57,162 nucleotides of DNA, taken from contig CAZLVJ010000001.1 of NCBI GenBank assembly GCA_964562935.1, forward strand, positions 33,859-91,020, in the 5' to 3' direction. Made by a program: the position numbers and the translations under genes. The DNA comes from an uncultured Nitrososphaerota archaeon (lineage in GTDB: Archaea > Thermoproteota > Methanomethylicia > Nezhaarchaeales > WYZ-LMO8). The number at the start of each line of letters is the position of its first letter. Within the stretch, counting starts at the first letter, position 1. The notes under the pieces were generated by a model. The model saw only the letters and a list, made by a program, of their open reading frames with translations, was not told the origin of the DNA and did not search any database. This document shows, one piece after another, positions 11,085-47,393 of this stretch.

Positions 11085-11870
11085 TCACTTCAAAGCTAGT
11101 AGAGCCGCGCCAAGAGCTCCTACGATTATAGGCTCCTTCGGAACCCAAATTTCACAACCAAGCCTACGCTCCAGAGCCTTTACAAAGCCTACGCTCTTCG
11201 CAACTCCCCCACTAGCAACTACATCTCTTGTTATTCCTACGATCTTCGCCAAACCAGCAACTCTCGACGCGAAAGCCTCTATCAGCCCAGCTATTATTTC
11301 CTCTTTGGGGACCCCCTGAGAGATCAAGGATATTACCTCTGTTTGAGCGAAGACGGTGCAAGTGTTAGTTATGCTAGCCCTTCTCTCTGTCTTGAGATAT
11401 ATCTCCCCGAACTCCTCTATACCGACGTCTAACACTTTAGACATAACTTCTAAAAACCTTCCAGTGCCAGCTGCGCACTTATCGTTCATTTCGAAGCCGA
11501 TCACGCGGCCTTCATCGTCGAGCTTTATGGCTTTAGCGTCTTGTCCTCCAACATCTATTACCCCTTTGCAGTTAGGGAAGAGGTATTTGGCGCCTCTGGC
11601 GTGACAAGTTATCTCGGAAGCGATGCTCCCTCCAACTTCTAATTGAACAATTTTGCCGCCGTACCCAGTCCCAACTATAGCCCTTACATCCTCTTTTGCG
11701 ATCCCTCCCATTTTTAGTGTCCTCTCAAAGATTTCACGAACGCACTTCCTCATATCGGGCTTCGTAGGTATTACGTCATGTACAACTACTTCTACCTGTC
11801 CGTCTTCTCTGATTCTTGCCAAGACGGCTTTTGTATACGCTGATCCAACGTCTATGCCAATACCATACAT
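11085..11870 (-). CDS. 2-hydroxyacyl-CoA dehydratase / benzoyl-CoA reductase activator ATPase (BcrAD_BadFG / HgdC-like)
   Basis: ASKHA N-terminus GIGIDVGSAYTKAV, and NDKCAAGTGRFLE with the cluster-bridging Cys. 261 aa. Confidence 0.85.
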   Translation of the reverse strand: MYGIGIDVGSAYTKAVLARIREDGQVEVVVHDVIPTKPDMRKCVREIFERTLKMGGIAKEDVRAIVGTGYGGKIVQLEVGGSIASEITCHARGAKYLFPNCKGVIDVGGQDAKAIKLDDEGRVIGFEMNDKCAAGTGRFLEVMSKVLDVGIEEFGEIYLKTERRASITNTCTVFAQTEVISLISQGVPKEEIIAGLIEAFASRVAGLAKIVGITRDVVASGGVAKSVGFVKALERRLGCEIWVPKEPIIVGALGAALLALK

Positions 11871-11892
11871 TTTTCAGAGGCACCTGAGCCCA

Positions 11893-13167
11893 TCATAGTA
11901 GCGATTCAATAAAAGCGTTTATCTTCGTTATAGCTCTCTCTAAAGGCATACCTCTTGGATCACATTGAGGGGCCTCGACAATTACGCTCGGTATTCCAAG
12001 TCCTTCCCAAAGCGTTTCCTTAAATCTTCGTAGGCCATACGAAAAAAGCCTACAACCAGTATTCTCAAACAGTATCGCACCGTCTAAGTCAGCCCTCTTT
12101 GCTCGACGAAGTACGGACTCTATCCATACATCGGCATCACAGTTCCACAGTGACATGCTACGCCTAACCAAGCTCTCCAAAGGCTTTGAAGACTCTATCA
12201 AGCAGAAAGTGTCTTCGACGTACAAATTTAGTGGGAAGACAACCCCCCTCTCCTCGTAATACTTGTAAAGCTCGCTATACCATGGAATTATCCCTTGAGA
12301 TAGAAGCCTTAATTTCTCCTCTTCGGCTACGCCCTCCCCCCTCTTGACCCTCTTCTTAATAATTTCCAAAGCCTCTTGAGTAAACTCTAGCGCGTAATCG
12401 GCTGCAGTAATGTAGAAGCCTATTAGTGGAAAGCCTCTGTAGTCCATTTGGCTCATGGGGGTCGGCTTGGAGATCATCAAATCCGCTATCTCGATTAAGT
12501 TCCTCGAAGTCTTCTCCGCTACCTCAAATACCCTTTTCATGCGTTCCTCGTCCAACTTCTCTCCCGTCAGCCCTTCTAGAAAGTGCATAAAATCCCACAG
12601 CTGGGTGACTACGAAATCGTAATCTTCTTTGCTGATCTTCTCGGGCTTTTTAGCTGGAAACTCTATTTTTCCAATTTTGTCTTCGGTCCAGAAGGGAGCA
12701 TCTATGATGAACCTCTTTAAGTTGCTGTAGAGGTTCGCGAAAACCTCTGACATCGCGTGGTGCCCACTATAACAAGCCATACGAGAGTCAAGCACGAAAT
12801 CGGGCTTCATGCCGCAGTGGCCGCCAAGAGGGGCTATTTCGCTATTCAAGATAGAGCCAATAGAGCACTTCAGATAGTCGCAGGTAAACTCACCGTAATG
12901 GTATTCGATGGCTACATCTATGAGCTTATCACTTGCCCCTTTACTCGCACAATAAGCCGAATACTGTTCCGGGAATACGTTCACAACGTCGAAGACGTAG
13001 GCGAGCTCTGTTGGAGAACAAGCCCAAAACCACCCTACTGGCTTTCCTCTACTTTTAAGTTCCATTAGTCGGGATAAGTGCCTTTGAAACATTTCTCTGA
13101 AAAGCTTGCGCACCTCCTCTAAGGGCCTCCAAGATTGGACCTTTAACTCCTTAGGCACTTCTCTCAC
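11893..13167 (-). CDS. 2-hydroxyacyl-CoA dehydratase family subunit (HgdB/BcrB-like)
   Basis: 424-aa ORF directly upstream of the activase, with the Cys-containing pattern typical of the HGD-D family. Overlaps the preceding subunit gene by 17 nt. Confidence 0.7.
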   Translation of the reverse strand: MREVPKELKVQSWRPLEEVRKLFREMFQRHLSRLMELKSRGKPVGWFWACSPTELAYVFDVVNVFPEQYSAYCASKGASDKLIDVAIEYHYGEFTCDYLKCSIGSILNSEIAPLGGHCGMKPDFVLDSRMACYSGHHAMSEVFANLYSNLKRFIIDAPFWTEDKIGKIEFPAKKPEKISKEDYDFVVTQLWDFMHFLEGLTGEKLDEERMKRVFEVAEKTSRNLIEIADLMISKPTPMSQMDYRGFPLIGFYITAADYALEFTQEALEIIKKRVKRGEGVAEEEKLRLLSQGIIPWYSELYKYYEERGVVFPLNLYVEDTFCLIESSKPLESLVRRSMSLWNCDADVWIESVLRRAKRADLDGAILFENTGCRLFSYGLRRFKETLWEGLGIPSVIVEAPQCDPRGMPLERAITKINAFIESLL

Positions 13168-14356
13168 GCACCATCTCTACGAAGGCCCTCATCCTAGTCA
13201 CGTAGTGCTCCCTCGGAAGCGGGTAGTCTAGATCCAATCTGACCGAGGGAATGTTGAGCTTTCTCAGGCCGTCCCTCAAGTGAGGGTAGGCAAACCCCAT
13301 GACTTCACATCCTCTGTCGACTAAGAACACCACTCCATCGGCCTCGAACTCTTCCACCAATGAGCGTATGTACTCCACCCTCTCGTCTACAGCCCTTGAG
13401 AGCTGCTTTGACATTAACAAGTTCGGCACTTTAAATAAGTAATGTTCTGCCAAGGCGTCGTAAGGATCTCTGTCCTCATCGACTTCATTCCAAAAGTAAG
13501 TCGTCCCTGTGTTTAAGTCATCAGAAACTATTTTTGCTCCGCAGTCCTCTATTATCTGCAAGATGTCGAGATCGATAACTTCAGTCCCAGATACGTGCAC
13601 TTTGACTTTTTTATCAGCATCACCCTCTTGCCTACGTTGGGCCCTCAGCTCACTGATCTCCTCTAGGACCTTCTTAACGACCTTTGAATGCTCTTCCTTG
13701 GGCATTGTCATGCTTAAGATTACAACCTTTAAGACGTCAGCTCCAGTCAAGGGAAAATCTTCCCTCTTCCTAGCCTCGTAAAGCATCTTGAGCAATCGGC
13801 GATTCTCGTTGTATATTTTAATGGCCCTCCTCAAATCGTCGTCAGATATAGCTAACCCCAAGAACTCCTCTATCCTGTTTTTGAGGTTTAAAACCTCTTT
13901 TACGAAATACTCTTTGCTTAGCTCACTCTTTAAGACTGGAACCTGCAAGAGGTATGAGAACTTAGGCTTTAGGACGTGCTTTAACAAGTAGAATAGTGCT
14001 ATGCAGGTGTCTTCCAACTTCGAGGCAATGAGGCCGTCAAGCCAATTGTACTCGCCGCTCAGGGCCACTTCTAGGCACCTTCTTGAAAAACTACAGCTCC
14101 AAGATGGTAAGTAGGTGTACGCCTTCTCAATTAATTGCGCCTTTCCAAAGAGCCTAAAGGGAAGCACGCCAGCTGCGTATAGGACCTCTTCTGGTATGTT
14201 CCACGAGACTAAACCGAAAACCTTCCCACCCCTTTCGTGGACCTCCTTGGCGGTCTTTGCAACTTCTCCACTGAACTCCTTCTCGATATAGTCGATTAGA
14301 TCCTTTACTTGCACGCCCACCTTCACGGTCACTCTCCTAGCAATTGACGAGAGCAA
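13151..14356 (-). CDS. 2-hydroxyacyl-CoA dehydratase family subunit (HgdA/BcrC-like)
   Basis: Maximal ORF from TTG 14356. GTG 14326 is more likely the real start: AGGAGA lies 6 nt upstream, and 14356 sits only 9 nt from the predicted TATA box. Confidence 0.7.
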   Translation of the reverse strand: MLSSIARRVTVKVGVQVKDLIDYIEKEFSGEVAKTAKEVHERGGKVFGLVSWNIPEEVLYAAGVLPFRLFGKAQLIEKAYTYLPSWSCSFSRRCLEVALSGEYNWLDGLIASKLEDTCIALFYLLKHVLKPKFSYLLQVPVLKSELSKEYFVKEVLNLKNRIEEFLGLAISDDDLRRAIKIYNENRRLLKMLYEARKREDFPLTGADVLKVVILSMTMPKEEHSKVVKKVLEEISELRAQRRQEGDADKKVKVHVSGTEVIDLDILQIIEDCGAKIVSDDLNTGTTYFWNEVDEDRDPYDALAEHYLFKVPNLLMSKQLSRAVDERVEYIRSLVEEFEADGVVFLVDRGCEVMGFAYPHLRDGLRKLNIPSVRLDLDYPLPREHYVTRMRAFVEMVRERSA

Positions 14357-22671: not shown

Positions 22672-22910
22672 GAGGCGTAATGTTCATCCTCTCGACAAGC
22701 CCTCAAAAAGCCTTCTGCAAGCCATTAAGGGGAAAGTCGTCAATAACCGCGCGCAGTTTGTTAACGGGCTTAAGGCTTGAGACGCGTGGAAATAACGTTA
22801 AGATTTTTAAGGGTCTTCGGTACCAAGAGAACTCGCCACACATACCCCCTCAAGTGAAGCCTGAGGAATGTCCTTGACCCATCAGATGATGACGTCATCG
22901 GGGGATTTGT

Positions 22911-24190: not shown

Positions 24191-24902
24191 CTACTCCCCT
24201 AAGAGCTTCTTCTTTGCCCTCTCAAATTCCTCACTCGTTATCACTCCTTCGTCTAAGAGCCTCTTGAGCTTAATAATCTCCTCGGCTATTGACGCCCTTG
24301 GAGTAGGGGACGTGTAAGGTACTGCCTTCTCAGCCATTTTTTCTACGGCGCTTGCTATTTTCTGTTGCTGAAACACCTCTCTCCATGCGATTAGCTTATT
24401 CACCACTACTTCCCTTACATTTTCTGGGAAGCGCACGTCCAAGAACGAGTTGTGTGCACCTGTGATGAGTGTGGGTGCGGCGCCGCCAGCACCAACACCT
24501 CGCCGTCTAGCACCTACCCCGACGTAGCCCACCTCTAGCCCAGTAGTGGTCACGAACACCACACTGCCGCACTTAAACGCTTTTGCTATAATCCCTGCCT
24601 CACGTGTACGTCCTGTATTTTGTCGAAGGTTATCTCTCTTTGATAAGTTCCGAAGATCCAAGACCTGGTTATGAGCACGCTGTTCTCCTTGACGTGGTAA
24701 GTGTGGGCCCACTTCCAATTAAGTAAAATGCTATGAAAACCCACGCTATTAGCGTGTAGGCCGCCAAGAGGACTAAAAGGACGTCGGGAGCCCAAAATAG
24801 GAGCAACGTCAAGATGAACGCTATCACGAAATAAATTATTGCAGCCTTAACGATGGTTTTCCTTATATAGGGTTTGCCAGACCAAAGAACGTTGCTTGAC
24901 AC
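24191..24902 (-). pseudogene. bPH_2 (DUF304/YdbT-like) membrane protein with C-terminal SHOCT domain, disrupted by two frameshifts
   Basis: One continuous homologous protein is spread over three frames. Part 1 is 24902..about 24720 (two TM helices). Part 2 is about 24720..24596 (HTYHVKENSVLITRSWIFGTYQREITFDKIQDVHVRQG). Part 3 is about 24595..24191, ending EEIIKLKRLLDEGVITSEEFERAKKKLL (SHOCT). Both switches occur at short homopolymer runs. Confidence 0.7.
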
Positions 24903-25664
24903 ATCCTTCGAAGACGTGAGGCCTCACCGCCTCGGTTACTCTATTCCTCCTTCCCATAGAGCAGTAGATATACGTAGCGGTACTCACCGCAAAAGGCCAA
25001 AGGTTTGGAAAGACATCGCAGTCCGTTTTATGTTATAACACCCTGTCTCGATTTTAGATCAGGCGCTTTTCAAGAGAGTTTCATTTTGGCAAATGATCCA
25101 ATATCACAGAGTTGGCAACATGCAGTACCTCCTTGTGATATTGAGTAATTCAAGAACTCACTTGACGCAACTTGTCGTTGAGCCTTATTGGCGTTCCTAG
25201 CGCTGTCTCATTAAGATCCCATATGTAATGATGGCTTGCTTTCGTCTTAAAGACTATGTGGCAATGATTAGGGCATGGAGGACAAAGACGTCAGGATTCT
25301 TAGTTCTCCTGACAATAATGTCACTATCGGAACTCGCCCTCGATGCAGCCAAAGAACTAGGTCCATCCTTGTCAACGAATTAAAGAATTGCCGTTAAGCT
25401 CTTTAAAGCAGAGCTCATAGCGATAGGGTTTCTCTCAACCCTTCATCGTGAGCAACTGTCGATCCGGCCCTGAAGCTACTATGTTAGGCCTGCTACGTAT
25501 CACACCACCTTTAGCGAGGCCCTCGCAAAGTCATCTCGGCCCTCAGGCTCTTTGCGATTCTACATGCCCTTACCGTCGTTCTTTAATGTGCAGGAAAACT
25601 TTTAGACGATTTCGTAACTATAATTATTCGAGATAATTTTGAAGGGCCACAAGGGTGAAACGTT

Positions 25665-25772
25665 ATGTCGAGGGTTAGTAAGAGAGAGGAGGAAGAAGAC
25701 GAGGTTTTGAAGGAGTGGAAGAAGAAAATTATGAAGGAGGCCAAGAGATTTGACGAATTAAAAAAGTCCTGA
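25665..25772 (+). CDS. possible 35-aa highly charged small protein
   Basis: ATG preceded by GGGTGA 7 nt upstream and by the TATA-like CTATAATTATT about 45 nt upstream. Translates to MSRVSKREEEEDEVLKEWKKKIMKEAKRFDELKKS. No homology recognised. Confidence 0.3.
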   Translation: MSRVSKREEEEDEVLKEWKKKIMKEAKRFDELKKS

Positions 25773-25959
25773 ATTTCTCATGGCACTATGTGCGATAAAT
25801 AGTCTACGACATTTTGCAACCTAACAACCTCGTTTGAAAGTCATTTTTAATGTCGCTCGTGAGAATCGCCTTCACCGAACTGGTCTCTACGAGGTACTCA
25901 AACGCCGCACGTCAAAACAACAAGTACAGTAAAACAACTGCTAAGTCTTGAAAGATTAT

Positions 25960-28773: not shown

Positions 28774-29023
28774 CTCGATAGAAATAGTTACTTGGAGGCC
28801 TTAAACTCTGCCTCTTCTAGCAGAGCCTCATAAGCACGCAATCGATGACCCGCTAAGGGAAAAGGTACTCGTCTACCGTCGTAAGCCCAAGGGCCTGGAG
28901 AATAAAGACGCTGACAAGCAAAGAGAAGAGAACAGTGGTTAGCACGCACTTTTATGGTGTGACACCGTTTAATCCAAGACGAAGAGGATAAATATCGTCC
29001 AGCTTACCTGTGATTCGAGCTCC

Positions 29024-43442: not shown

Positions 43443-43862
43443 TTAAGGCTGGTAGCCTTCTAGCTCAAACCTGCCATCGCCCTTCATGTACACGACGCTT
43501 ACGCCGCCTTCTCTCAACCTTCGCCTTAACCTCCTATCGTTTGTCGCGACTACGTAGCCCTCTCTCCTAGAGATCTTGACTATAACGTCGTCGACTGCCC
43601 CCTCGCCATCCTCAACGACTTCAAACCCCCCTTTCTTCACGTACTCTAGGACAGCGCGAGCTATTCGAGCGGCCTTTCGTCTCTTGTCGGAGCTCGCCAT
43701 CCTCTCAAGCTCTCGAAGTTGCGCTCTCAGGATGACTGGCCTGACCTTGGTCTCAAGCAACCCTTCAACTCTCTCAACAACATTTATGGGCCTCTCAAAA
43801 ATAGCCATCAAGAAGTTTGTGTCGAAGAGCACCTTAGTTGCGATTTTGCCTCCACTCCTCAC
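43443..43862 (-). CDS. PIN-domain protein (Fcf1/COG1412-like)
   Basis: VLFDTNFLM and VATNDRRLRRRL motifs. The GTG start overlaps the aIF2-gamma TGA stop. Conserved position between eif2g and rpoE'. Confidence 0.8.
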   Translation of the reverse strand: MRSGGKIATKVLFDTNFLMAIFERPINVVERVEGLLETKVRPVILRAQLRELERMASSDKRRKAARIARAVLEYVKKGGFEVVEDGEGAVDDVIVKISRREGYVVATNDRRLRRRLREGGVSVVYMKGDGRFELEGYQP

Positions 43863-45148
43863 CTGATTATTCCGTACCCTATGAGCCTAAACCTGCCGGA
43901 TATCTGGCGACTTATCGCTACTCTAGTTCCTGGCTCTGCGCATACTGGCCTACGTAGCTTCACCGAGACTACGTCTTTAGAGGCCTTAGCGACTATCCCT
44001 AGAGTAGTGGCCGTGCCAACGTTTATCATCAAGGTCTCGTTGGCTCTTATGTTCTCGACCTTAACCATGTCTACTGTTCCCACAGCTCTTTCAAACAGCA
44101 CGACTTCTAGGTCAAGCTCCGAGAGCGTTGGAGGGAGCGTGCCGGGCTTGCCCACGACGCTACCAGCTAAGGCGTCTGCTTTCGTGAGTGAGGGGTCTAG
44201 AAGTGTACCAATGCCTATCAACCCTCCGGGTTTAGCCTCTTCTACGCTTACATCGCCAGCCTTTAGGCTCACTATTTGAGTGTACAACGGCTCGTACTCG
44301 ACCCTCCCGCCTCCTTTCTCTATCCTGACGCCGGGTCTTATCTCGACCTCGTCGCCCACCCTGGCAACACCTTGGATTATAGAGCCTCCTAAGACCCCAC
44401 CTCTTAGTTCTTCGGGCGGCGTCCCAGGCTTGTTGACGTCAAAGGACCTAGCTATCAGCGCTCTCAAAGGCTTTGACGGATCCCTTTTTGGTGTCGGGAT
44501 GGTCTTCTCTATGACCTCGACCAAGACATCAAGGTTTGCTCTATGGAGGGCAGAGATCGGAATTATTGGCGCATCCCTGTACATGGTTTCTCTCAAGAAC
44601 TCCCTTATCTGACGATAGTTCTCAATGACCTTATCTCTCGGAGCGACCTCTATCTTATTTTGTACCACCACCACGTTTCTGACCCCCATTATTTCGAGGG
44701 CCTTCAAGTGCTCTCGCGTCTGAGGCTGAGGACACGGAGCTGTAGCGTCGATCACCAATATGGCTCCGTCAAATAGCGTAGCCCCTGCGAGCATAGTTGC
44801 CATCAACATATCACGTTGCACGCCCGTTTATGGGCGTGCAATTTCGTGTCCGGGACAGTCCACGAACGAGTACTTCCTCAAGAACTCAAGCTTAGACCCG
44901 CAGTGCTTGCAAGTAGTCCCCGAGAGCGCGTAAGTTGTATAACATTGAGGAGGCGGGCATTTGGGGCACTTCAAGACCGTGGTGTCGGCGTAACCCAGCC
45001 TAAGTGTTATCCCCCTTCTCAATTCCTCGGAGTGCCTTGAAGCCCATACTCCCGAGAGGGCCCACGTCAAGGTCGTCTTGCCGTGGTCTACGTGACCCGT
45101 CGTGCCTATGTTCAGCTCAGCCTGCTTTTTCATCCACCCCTCAACCAT
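43859..45148 (-). CDS. eif2g: translation initiation factor aIF2 gamma subunit, interrupted by a 33-nt predicted intron (exons 45148..44843 and 44809..43859, 418 aa after splicing)
   Basis: [10 protein letters not shown], a 4-Cys zinc knuckle, DCPGHE then in-frame TAA, then [19 protein letters not shown]. The two track ORFs (44828..45148 and 43859..44821) are in the same frame. The start could also be Met 45133. Confidence 0.9.
44810..44842 (-). other. predicted 33-nt BHB/BHL-type mRNA intron in aIF2-gamma
   Basis: 4-bp helix CACG/CGUG, flanked by a 3-nt bulge AAA and AUA, plus a perfect 10-bp inner hairpin with loop AUAAAC containing the UAA stop. Excision restores PGHE-M-LMATML. Confidence 0.65.
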
Positions 45149-45494
45149 GTTTAATCGCCTTCTCCTCGTACTTTATGACCATGTTTATTTGAACTATATC
45201 GTCAGATATAGTGTTTCCCCGAACGAGCTTCCTCTTCCTCAAACCCCTCTTCTTGGGCCTAAAGCCGGGTCCTTGGCTCAATAACAGCCTCCGCTTAACG
45301 GGTCCTGGGAGGTCAGGCCTCATGGGTGCTCCACTTCTATCGCTCCCACCTCTAATCACTAACTTAACTCCTGGCATTCCAAGCAACGCGCCGTCCACTT
45401 CATCTCCTATCCTAAGCCCTATTAGGGCACTCGCTTGAGGCCCGCTGACGGTTACCTGCTTAGCCTTTCCGGTCGCTGGATCAGATATGACCAC
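45141..45494 (-). CDS. rps6e: 30S ribosomal protein S6e
   Basis: VISDP.TGKA.Q..V and GG.D..G.PMR motifs. GTG start, with no upstream in-frame start available. Confidence 0.9.
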
Positions 45495-45572
45495 TTTGAA
45501 TTCAGGCGTTCTTTTTCACCCCTTAGCGTGAACACACTTCACGAGTTAGCTAAAAACTTTGAGGTCTTTAAA

Positions 45573-47393
45573 TCAATACCTGCCAGCAATCCTCTTTATC
45601 TTAGTGATTTCATCGATGAGCTCCAGCTCCTCTCTTGACAACTGATCAGAGAACTTCTCCTTCAATACTCTCACATGTTCTAAGGGTACGTCAACGTACA
45701 GGTAATCGCCTTCGTCGACATGTCTACCAACAATTACGTCCCCCTTAATAGATATCGCGACGGCTTGCCCTGCCACGGCCTCACTTAAGCTCTTTTTCTG
45801 TTCTTGTATCTGCATTATCACCCCAACCCTTCTGCCCTTAGCGTTAATCAATGGATACCCGGGCCTTAGCCTCCCGGCCAATACTTCGACTCCGACTATC
45901 GCCGGGTCGCTCCTTCTGAATACGTAGCCCTTTAAGATACGGGCCTTCCCGGGCAAGATTAGGGAGGATAGCGTCTGCCTGCGATCCTCTTCCATTTTCT
46001 TCTTGACCCAAGCTAAGTAGTCCTCTATCAGCCTGTAAATGACATTGTTTTTAAACACCGGTATGTTCCTACTCTCTATCTCTTGCTCTGCGTCGGGGCT
46101 CGTACTAACGTTGAACGCTAAGATGACGCCGTGGTAGGGGTCCTTATCTCTCGTTATCGCGGCTTCGACGACGTCCCTCTTCGATATCTTTCCGACGTCA
46201 GCCAACCTCACTGGCACGCCTAGCTCCTGTAGCTTCGACACCAATGCCTCAAGGGATCCCAAGGTATCGGCTTTAACCACAACCCCTATGACGTCAGTCG
46301 TTATCCTGATCTTCGAGAGCTCCTCTGACACCCTCTTTACCGCTTCCTCGATTTCAGCTTGATCCCTCGCTGAGAAAAGAGGGCTACCAGCCACGGCGTC
46401 GTCGAGGCCATGGGCAACGACTCTTACGCCAGCGGCTGCGACGACCTCGTCCACGCTCTTGAACTTGTCCTCCGGGTCCCTCATCTCGTCCATGGGCTTG
46501 GGCATTAATATGCTCCTGATCTTGGTCACTATGGGACCTTTGAGCCCGCCGAGCACTATTGTGTCATCCTTTCTTAGTACGCCATCGTAAATTATCACGT
46601 CCACGACGTTGCCCAAGCCCGGGATCTCTCTGCACTCTAGCACCACGCCCTTAGCCGTCGCCTCCTCGACGTAGAGCCTCTTCAACATGTACCTCTGAGA
46701 CAGGCCGGCCAAGACGAGCAAGAGGTCTGGTACGCCCTCTCCCGTCTTAGCGCTTGTGGGTATTATGGCCACTGTTCTGGCGAAGTCTCTTATTCTGTCG
46801 TACCTGTCGGCTTGAAAGCCAAGCTCCTCAAACTTGGCCACGATGTTGTAGATGAGCTCGTCGAGCCTCCTCTGGACCTGAGGCGGCTGAGACTTTATTG
46901 TCTCAACGAACGGCTTGAACTCGTTCTCAACCCACCCAGGTATTTTGTCTATCTTGTTCGCGGCAACGACAAAGGGCGTTTTCCTAGCCTTTAAGATCTC
47001 CAAGCACTCGTAGGTTATCTCCTCAAAACCTTCGAGAACGTCTATGACCAAGATGGCCATGTCGGCTATCGAGCCGCCCCTCTTCCTCAAGTTCACGAAG
47101 GCCTCGTGTCCTGGAGTGTCTATGACCAAGAAGCCAGGTATCTTGATTTCAACCTTTATGCTCTTGAGTAGCGGACCGCAAATCCTCTCGAGAGCTGACC
47201 ACGGTAAGAAAGAAGCCCCAATGTGTTGGGTTTGCCACGTAGCGCCTGCTTGGCGCTACATCATGGCCCCAACCTCTTTAAACATAATCGCAGTGCCCCT
47301 GATCTTGTCCAGAAGAAGGGTCTTTCCTACATCTACGTGCCCTAGCACGCACAGAATGGGCGATCTGATTCTCTTGCTCTCACCACTGCTCAA
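45573..47393 (-). CDS. infB: translation initiation factor aIF5B (IF2 homologue), interrupted by a 30-nt predicted intron (exons 47393..47262 and 47231..45573, 596 aa after splicing)
   Basis: Exon 1 reads [26 protein letters not shown]...KEVGAM. Exon 2 reads TQHIGAS...[14 protein letters not shown], and onward. TTG 47393 has GAGGAGGTGA upstream. The track ORF 45573..47129 lacks the P-loop. Confidence 0.92.
47232..47261 (-). other. predicted 30-nt canonical bulge-helix-bulge mRNA intron in aIF5B
   Basis: hBHBh' structure: 6-bp outer helix, AAA bulge, 4-bp helix GCCA/UGGC, UGA bulge, 9-bp inner helix, 5-nt loop. Contains an in-frame UAG. Excision restores KEVGAMTQHIGA. Confidence 0.75.

Follow-up and report, generated by a model that had tools for sequence, protein, structure and literature searches.

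Putative bulge-helix-bulge introns in the aIF5B and aIF2-gamma genes of a Nezhaarchaeales gene cluster

Introduction

An intron in the cbf5 pre-mRNA of Crenarchaeota was reportedly described by Watanabe in 2002 and by Yoshinari in 2006. Two archaeal mRNAs have been reported as substrates of the splicing endonuclease, that of cbf5 in some Crenarchaeota (PMC2738675) and that of HVO_1309 in Haloferax, in its 5' untranslated region (UTR) (PMC7714728), and no others were found in the literature searched. According to a 2023 review, further archaeal mRNA substrates probably remain undiscovered (PMC10485636). Here we describe a stretch of 57,162 nucleotides (the window, in its entirety) from an uncultured hot-spring Nitrososphaerota archaeon of the Nezhaarchaeales (GenBank assembly GCA_964562935.1, contig CAZLVJ010000001.1, positions 33,859 to 91,020 of the forward strand), in which the genes for two translation initiation GTPases, aIF5B and aIF2-gamma, are each interrupted by a short insertion with the features of a bulge-helix-bulge (BHB) intron. 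A literature search for Nezhaarchaeota with intron, and for aIF5B with intron, returned no report of such an intron; aIF2-gamma was not named as a host in the BHB-intron literature found, no search having been aimed at aIF2-gamma introns.

Results

Interruption of the aIF5B and aIF2-gamma genes

The aIF5B gene (47393..45573) and the aIF2-gamma gene (45148..43859) are both encoded on the minus strand, with one insertion each, at 47261..47232 and 44842..44810, respectively. The frame was broken in both cases by an in-frame stop codon, after which the same frame was open again. The aIF5B open reading frame (ORF) began with a TTG at 47393, preceded at a distance of 10–17 nt by the Shine-Dalgarno-like sequence GGAGGTGA, and ended with a TAG after 45 amino acids (aa; 47393..47256), the frame being open again to 45573. 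The aIF2-gamma ORF began with an ATG at 45148 and ended with a TAA after 106 aa (45148..44828), and its frame was open again to 43859. An earlier reading of the window made from its letters (the sequence-only reading) had described two initiation-factor genes 2.4 kb apart, both interrupted, with in-frame stops that leave peptides of 45 and 106 aa, and all of these features are present in the sequence.

Structure of the predicted introns

The aIF5B insertion is contained in a full strict BHB motif (47225..47273, minus strand), which was identified from the minimum-free-energy fold, pair counts, and a covariance model. Read from the sequence, with the bulges in parentheses and the predicted cuts as slashes, the RNA motif is GUUGGG-GCCA-(UG/A)-UGUAGCGCC-AAGCA-GGCGCUACG-UGGC-(AA/A)-CCCAAC. 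It consists of an outer exon-exon helix of 6 bp (47273-47268 with 47230-47225), a central helix of four Watson-Crick pairs between GCCA and UGGC (47267-47264 with 47237-47234), a 5' bulge UGA (47263-47261), an inner stem of 9 bp (47260-47252 with 47246-47238), a 5-nt loop (47251-47247), and a 3' bulge AAA (47233-47231). Helices flank both bulges, as in the strict hBHBh' form. Unconstrained folding of a 66-nt segment recovered the BHB at -30.4 kcal/mol (z = -4.2), and none of 200 shuffled sequences was as stable.

For aIF2-gamma, the fold, a hairpin scan, and pair counts gave a motif at 44809..44848 (minus strand) that reads CACG-(AA/A)-UUGCACGCCC-AUAAAC-GGGCGUGCAA-CGUG-(AU/A)-UG. Its central helix pairs CACG with CGUG (44848-44845 with 44815-44812), the 5' bulge is AAA (44844-44842), the inner stem has 10 bp (44841-44832 with 44825-44816), the loop lies at 44831-44826, and the 3' bulge is AUA (44811-44809). 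Past the 3' bulge, just one or two weak exon-exon pairs with a GA/AUA asymmetry were found, and because this helix is only marginal the motif was classified as a relaxed BHB. The unconstrained fold of the corresponding 66-nt segment recovered the architecture at -26.0 kcal/mol (z = -4.0), again with none of 200 shuffles as stable. Both introns have the same 3-4-3 core, in which two 3-nt bulges on opposite strands are separated by a 4-bp central helix, and this helix was 100% paired in all relatives for both genes. The sequence-only reading had pointed to the placement of the 5' central-helix strand in exon 1; this placement was seen in both genes, but it is the canonical BHB arrangement and not a peculiarity of these two. 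In the BHB of pre-tRNAs, the intron pairs with exon nucleotides from the anticodon side.

A BHB motif by itself is not diagnostic. In the window, the pattern of a BHB plus a hairpin with an inner stem of at least 7 bp and a short loop occurred 19 times, against about 15 in shuffled sequences, and a looser scan (inner stem of at least 6 bp) gave 511 against about 460. Other matches that we inspected (28798-28828, 22714-22749, and 1315-1348) had no coding logic, and a scan with relaxed stems for BHBs whose excision fuses two ORFs was overwhelmed by false positives and was dropped. Among the perfect hairpins of at least 8 bp in the 57 kb, those of the two introns rank highest in GC content, and that of aIF2-gamma is also the longest. 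The significance of the motifs derives from this rank, from their coincidence with interruptions of conserved genes, and from the comparative data, of which the last are decisive.

Predicted splice products and comparison with relatives

The archaeal tRNA splicing endonuclease EndA cleaves after the second nucleotide of each bulge, and this rule was applied to the 3-nt bulges of both motifs. It excised 30 nt from aIF5B (47232..47261, minus strand; AUGUAGCGCCAAGCAGGCGCUACGUGGCAA), with an in-frame UAG as the second intron codon, and 33 nt from aIF2-gamma (44810..44842, minus strand; AUUGCACGCCCAUAAACGGGCGUGCAACGUGAU), with an in-frame UAA inside the hairpin loop, and the predicted spliced products were proteins of 596 and 418 aa, respectively. 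Exon 1 of aIF5B (47262..47393, minus strand) comprises 44 codons from the TTG start to ...KEVGAM and includes the P-loop GHVDVGKT, and exon 2 (45573..47231, minus strand) comprises 552 codons and the stop, from the switch I threonine onward. The predicted junction, ...EVGAM/TQHIGAS..., falls within switch I, directly before the conserved Thr-Gln-His. Exon 1 of aIF2-gamma (44843..45148, minus strand) has 102 codons that encode the G1 motif, the zinc knuckle, and the G3 motif, and ends with ...FVDCPGHE; exon 2 (43859..44809, minus strand) has 316 codons and the stop. The junction predicted here, ...FVDCPGHE/MLMATML..., lies directly after the G3 motif (DxPGHE).

In protein searches the window fell within Candidatus Nezhaarchaeales, its own contig being Ga0209493_1000041. 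Genome and metagenome contigs of relatives were scanned at both sites, and their loci were numbered from L001. The intron-less relatives L007–L009 and L030–L034 read PGTM-TQHIGAS and PGHE-MLMATM, continuous at both predicted junctions and in exact agreement with the BHB rule, and full-length aIF2-gamma proteins at 70–74% identity were also continuous across the predicted site. Full-length aIF5B homologues (at most 67% identity) had 590–608 aa, a few truncated calls aside, compared with 596 aa for the predicted spliced protein. As a separate observation on aIF5B, the P-loop in exon 1 (47322-47345) is GHVDVGKT where GHVDHGKT is usual, and switch I has GAMTQ where GGITQ is usual; GHVDVGKT and GAM-TQ are common to the intron-bearing clades, L040 and L041 included, and the intron-less L007–L009 have GTMTQ.

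The aIF5B intron was found at a constant site in 21 loci of the window's clade (15 distinct sequences) and in four loci of a sister clade, from which together 17 distinct variants were tabulated; the aIF2-gamma intron, likewise at a constant site, was found in 20 loci, which comprised 12 distinct introns and, with the flanks included, 15 distinct sequences. The aIF5B intron had 29, 30, or 33 nt in the window's clade and 30 or 31 nt in the sister-clade loci L040, L041, L042, and L044, and the aIF2-gamma intron had 32, 33, or 35 nt. Since many of these lengths are not multiples of three, the exons stand in different frames in many genomes, and only exact excision restores the frame. In all loci that were not ended by a contig edge, excision by the BHB rule gave an open frame of 594–660 codons for aIF5B and 420–426 codons for aIF2-gamma, and unspliced reading met a stop within 6–33 codons. 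Among loci L001–L044, every variant with a length that is a multiple of three had an in-frame stop, in both genes, and these stops had several independent origins, for example a UAG in the stem, a UAA in the loop, or a UAG or UAA to which the 3' strand of the central helix and the bulge both contribute. Only three variants lacked a stop (aIF2-gamma of L005, L026, and L039), and these were 32 nt long and shifted the frame. With a stop or a frame shift in all variants, no full-length protein with the insertion in it can come from unspliced mRNA, and the pattern suggests selection against translating unspliced mRNA into such a protein. A translated in-frame insertion or an intein was rejected as a candidate, as the variants with a multiple of three nucleotides all have a stop and many others shift the frame.

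The same variation bears on translational recoding, in which ribosomes would pass the insertion by bypass (hopping of the T4 gene 60 type), read-through, or frameshifting, and no splicing would take place. Bypass in T4 gene 60 involves a stop codon and a stable hairpin near the take-off site, and both insertions superficially resemble it in having a stop and a stable hairpin just after a potential take-off site; a few aIF2-gamma variants have GAA/GAG at both insert ends. However, the take-off and landing codons are unmatched in aIF5B (AUG and GGCAA/ACC) and in the aIF2-gamma gene of the window (GAA and GAU), and lengths from 29 to 35 nt with shifting stop positions would need a separate event in each lineage. 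What is conserved, moreover, is the BHB, with its two 3-nt bulges, its 4-bp helix, and its covarying stems of unrelated sequence, which is the type of an endonuclease substrate and not that of a signal to the ribosome. We consider recoding very improbable.

Selection on the exons and covariation of the stems

On both sides of both introns, nonsynonymous divergence (dN) was 0.01–0.12 where synonymous divergence (dS) was at least 0.8 or saturated, corresponding to dN/dS of about 0.01–0.1 and to strong purifying selection. For exon 1 of aIF5B compared with relatives, dN was 0.012–0.038 where dS was at least 0.88 or saturated. In aIF5B exon 2, the first 34 codons precede every start codon that a gene caller could use, yet their dN/dS was also about 0.01–0.1. 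Each gene had one lesion, whose site was constant and whose geometry was that of a BHB in every case.

In a database of 5.8 billion proteins, the aIF5B clusters at 80–92% identity consisted entirely of truncated calls of 495–549 aa and the aIF2-gamma clusters at 83% identity or more entirely of calls of 313–322 aa, and full-length proteins were absent above 67% identity for aIF5B and above 74% for aIF2-gamma. N-terminally truncated aIF5B and aIF2-gamma proteins stood in NCBI and JGI records, and assembly GCA_026413605.1 (L044) had no aIF5B gene call between NDK and S6e. Automatic annotation had been expected by the sequence-only reading to mislabel both genes, and it does so. In-frame stops, frameshifts, and the truncation or omission of both genes by annotation pipelines are what pseudogenes would present, or decaying duplicates with functional copies elsewhere in the genome, a case that the sequence-only reading had also raised. 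Such decay is hardly credible here: dN/dS was about 0.01–0.1 on both sides of each intron at saturated dS in many genomes, a single lesion per gene kept its site and BHB geometry, synteny was conserved and was that of the single-copy orthologue, and no close intact paralogue was present in the protein database.

The 34 codons of aIF5B exon 2 also bear on whether each gene yields two separate polypeptides, one per ORF, that assemble into a working GTPase. Each gene does have two ORFs, and the downstream piece has a gene-caller start (TTG or GTG). However, the 34 codons before that TTG in aIF5B, with the switch I threonine among them, were under purifying selection with no preceding start. The break would also divide one Rossmann-like G domain, either in switch I or right behind the G3 motif, and the BHB geometry and the covariation would be left unexplained. 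A split protein is therefore scarcely plausible.

In L040, L041, L042, and L044 (66–68% protein identity), the aIF5B intron occupied the same site with unrelated inner stems, such as CCUGGCGGG with CCCGCCGGG, CCCGGCAGG with CCUGCCGGG, and CUCAGCG... with ...CGCUGAG. When these divergent lineages were included in a 16-sequence alignment, 98% of the cells were paired and seven of the nine inner-stem pairs had changed on both sides; none of 500 shuffles reached the observed values, and slid controls were 28–39% paired. The minimum-free-energy folds of the aIF5B introns of L041, L042, and L044 were textbook BHBs. The aIF2-gamma stems were essentially invariant, and the loop varied in sequence and length, with U, G, A, or C as the middle nucleotide of the 3' bulge; this free variation, in the loop and in the middle bulge nucleotide, is where the BHB model predicts it. 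The variable part of each intron was limited to a loop of 4–9 nt.

Evolutionary history of the two introns

A neighbor-joining tree built on aIF5B exon 2 had the two-intron clade as sister to the clade of L040, L041, L042, and L044, with the intron-less L007–L009 outside both. On one and the same contig, L042 (ENA k141_310743) and L044 (GCA_026413605.1, JAOAKM010000001.1) each had the aIF5B intron and an intact, intron-less aIF2-gamma gene. The status of aIF2-gamma was unreadable in L040, where a run of N (a scaffold gap, 2620-2728) lies exactly over the intron site, and the L041 contig ends before aIF2-gamma, L045 being from a different organism than L041. The pattern of L042 and L044 indicated that the two introns are separable in evolution and were gained stepwise. 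The most parsimonious history from this comparison would place the aIF5B intron in the ancestor of the two Nezhaarchaeales clades and the aIF2-gamma intron later, in the clade of the window.

The sequence-only reading had raised a possible regulatory coupling of the two genes, by which splicing could serve as a checkpoint or valve, had suggested a covariance-model check of their homology, and had noted that each consists of a GC-rich hairpin followed by ACGUG. Both the hairpin and the ACGUG are indeed present in both introns of the window, but the ACGUG was not kept in the aIF5B relatives (ACUUGG, GCAUGG, and ACCUGG) and, in the strict BHB register, takes different structural positions in the aIF5B and aIF2-gamma introns. 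A covariance model was calibrated for the aIF5B intron and searched against the window with filters off. At a cut-off of E ≤ 10 it missed the aIF2-gamma intron; it found its own site (73.3 bits, as expected for a site in the training alignment) and the reverse strand of that site, and nothing else. Homology of the two introns thus went undetected by this model.

Regulated splicing would make the introns a valve that couples both initiation GTPases to EndA and RtcB activity or to the growth state, and for which they would be retained. In its favor, the two hosts are initiation GTPases from one cluster and are the only interrupted genes among about 55 examined; the stems are conserved at saturated synonymous divergence; and variants that keep the frame always carry stops, so that unspliced mRNA would be silent rather than leaky. 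However, the sister clade combines the aIF5B intron with an intron-less aIF2-gamma gene on the same contig, the introns have no detectable homology and no conserved ACGUG, and no sensor-like element was seen, the variable part being a short loop. Stems and stops are equally expected of a constitutively spliced intron that is hard to lose, and because any intron that needs excision would show conserved stems, these are uninformative on regulation. With the sister clade decoupled, the ACGUG not conserved, no cross-match of the covariance model, and stems that do not discriminate, coupling of the two introns is not supported, and we regard regulated splicing as unlikely. The same doubt attaches to a feed-forward gate, by which initiation capacity would be tied to tRNA and rRNA maturation through EndA and RtcB, with stops selected to silence unspliced mRNA and introns kept for this function; we would give it little weight.

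Gene cluster and other features of the window

The two GTPase genes belong to a co-directional, operon-like cluster with the order NDK-aIF5B-S6e-aIF2gamma-PIN-RpoE'-Spt4, according to synteny and Pfam labels in relatives. The gene of ribosomal protein S6e (45141..45494, minus strand) lies between them and shares 8 nt with the start of aIF2-gamma, whose stop overlaps the start of the PIN gene by 4 nt. Among the approximately 55 genes of the window that were examined, aIF5B and aIF2-gamma were the only split genes; no further split gene came from a search for perfect hairpins or from Pfam searches with about 50 ORFs of the window, and the Pfam searches gave no match to EndA, RtcB, or Cbf5. ARAGORN detected no tRNA gene, either in the window or in the 20 related loci searched, and no tRNA introns of the same lineage were therefore available for comparison. 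Rfam gave no match at the gathering threshold over the whole window, nor at E ≤ 1 around both genes.

Two other regions are recorded here as side observations. At 24800-25950, about 1.1 kb contained no ORF of at least 80 aa and gave no Rfam match at E ≤ 1; its GC content was 0.41–0.47, lower than that of the flanks (about 0.51). At 11085-14356, an activator ATPase of the BcrAD/BadFG type adjoins two genes for HGD-D (2-hydroxyacyl-CoA dehydratase-like) subunits, with genes for an aldehyde:ferredoxin oxidoreductase and an Fe-type alcohol dehydrogenase upstream; this is metabolic context, unconnected to the introns.

Discussion

By far the best explanation of these data, and one in which we place high confidence, is that both pre-mRNAs are spliced by the tRNA endonuclease EndA and a ligase. 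Both interruptions would be archaeal BHB introns in coding sequence that are cut from the pre-mRNA by EndA, the tRNA and rRNA splicing endonuclease. With cleavage behind the second nucleotide of both 3-nt bulges, an intron of 30 or 33 nt would be released and probably circularised, and an RtcB-type ligase would join the exons, in the manner of the crenarchaeal cbf5 pre-mRNA. The joined mRNAs would read ...GCC AUG/ACC CAA... in aIF5B and ...CAC GAA/AUG UUG... in aIF2-gamma, and unspliced transcripts would yield only the peptides of 45 and 106 aa. Splicing would most likely be constitutive; the introns would persist because their precise loss is rare, and the stems would be kept by selection for splicing competence. 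The proposal of the sequence-only reading that full-length protein depends on removal of a BHB intron at the RNA level is borne out to the extent that geometry, junctions, length variation, selection, and aIF5B covariation all point to it.

Several points weigh against this explanation. The case for splicing rests on sequence comparison, and neither EndA nor RtcB was found in the window; both are near-universal in archaea, and their presence in these genomes is assumed on that ground. The relaxed motif of aIF2-gamma would need an endonuclease of broad specificity, of the (alpha-beta)2 or epsilon2 type. In the aIF5B variants of L003 and L040, the minimum-free-energy fold favored a slightly shifted register. 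Finally, the aIF2-gamma stems do not covary because they are invariant, which leaves the conservation pattern and the frame logic to back the structure in that gene.

If splicing by EndA and a ligase takes place, its mechanism would be that of cbf5, and the novelty would lie in the host genes, in the lineage, and in a single cluster having two introns. Two well-supported cases, with unusually clean comparative evidence, would be added to the two reported archaeal spliced mRNAs. The hosts are essential, universally conserved translation factors, so that splicing would be obligatory for viability. That both split genes of the window are initiation GTPases of one operon-like cluster is notable, a regulatory role being an add-on hypothesis with a small chance of being right. 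With regard to evolution, the data point to BHB introns in protein genes that are gained stepwise, with an interior that turns over and a motif that is preserved. The truncated or missing aIF5B and aIF2-gamma calls in Nezhaarchaeales metagenome-assembled genomes (MAGs) distort marker-gene sets, completeness estimates, and phylogenies. The signature of a split ORF, a BHB, and an intron length that varies modulo 3 can be scanned for across archaeal metagenomes. The cases are of interest for archaeal RNA biology and for the annotation of MAGs.

Among known systems, HAC1/XBP1 splicing in eukaryotes (IRE1 with tRNA ligase or RtcB) is alike in being spliceosome-independent mRNA splicing by an endonuclease and a ligase, with an inactive unspliced form. 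It is the model behind the idea of a valve, but it uses IRE1 and other stem-loop substrates and its stress regulation is proven, whereas regulation of the present introns is a hypothesis. The BHB introns of archaeal tRNA and rRNA share with the present ones the 3-4-3 geometry and a 5' central-helix strand from the upstream exon. The introns described here are little more than a hairpin, and the size range of tRNA mini-introns spans that of both. In contrast to tRNA and rRNA introns, the host here is an mRNA, and those segments of the motif that lie in exons are under codon constraint (GCC AUG and ACC CAR in aIF5B; CAC GAR and AUG in aIF2-gamma).

The HVO_1309 intron of Haloferax volcanii is likewise in an mRNA substrate, and its removal is apparently needed for efficient expression; however, it lies in a euryarchaeal 5' UTR and leaves the frame uninterrupted, whereas the ORFs here are broken within the G domain (Schwarz 2020, PMC7714728). 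A further close system is the cbf5 intron of Aeropyrum, Sulfolobales, and Desulfurococcales, which is also a short coding-sequence intron in a conserved information-processing gene, with a BHB or relaxed BHB at the exon-intron boundaries, a patchy, clade-specific distribution that implies gain and loss, and a gene that is routinely misannotated (Yokobori 2009, PMC2738675). Removal by the tRNA splicing endonuclease has been demonstrated for cbf5, whereas here we infer it. The aIF5B motif is a strict hBHBh', compared with the relaxed motif of cbf5 (PMC10485636). The present introns differ from that of cbf5 in their hosts, the translational GTPases aIF5B and aIF2-gamma, in their lineage, Ca. Nezhaarchaeales, and in the occurrence of two of them in one cluster.

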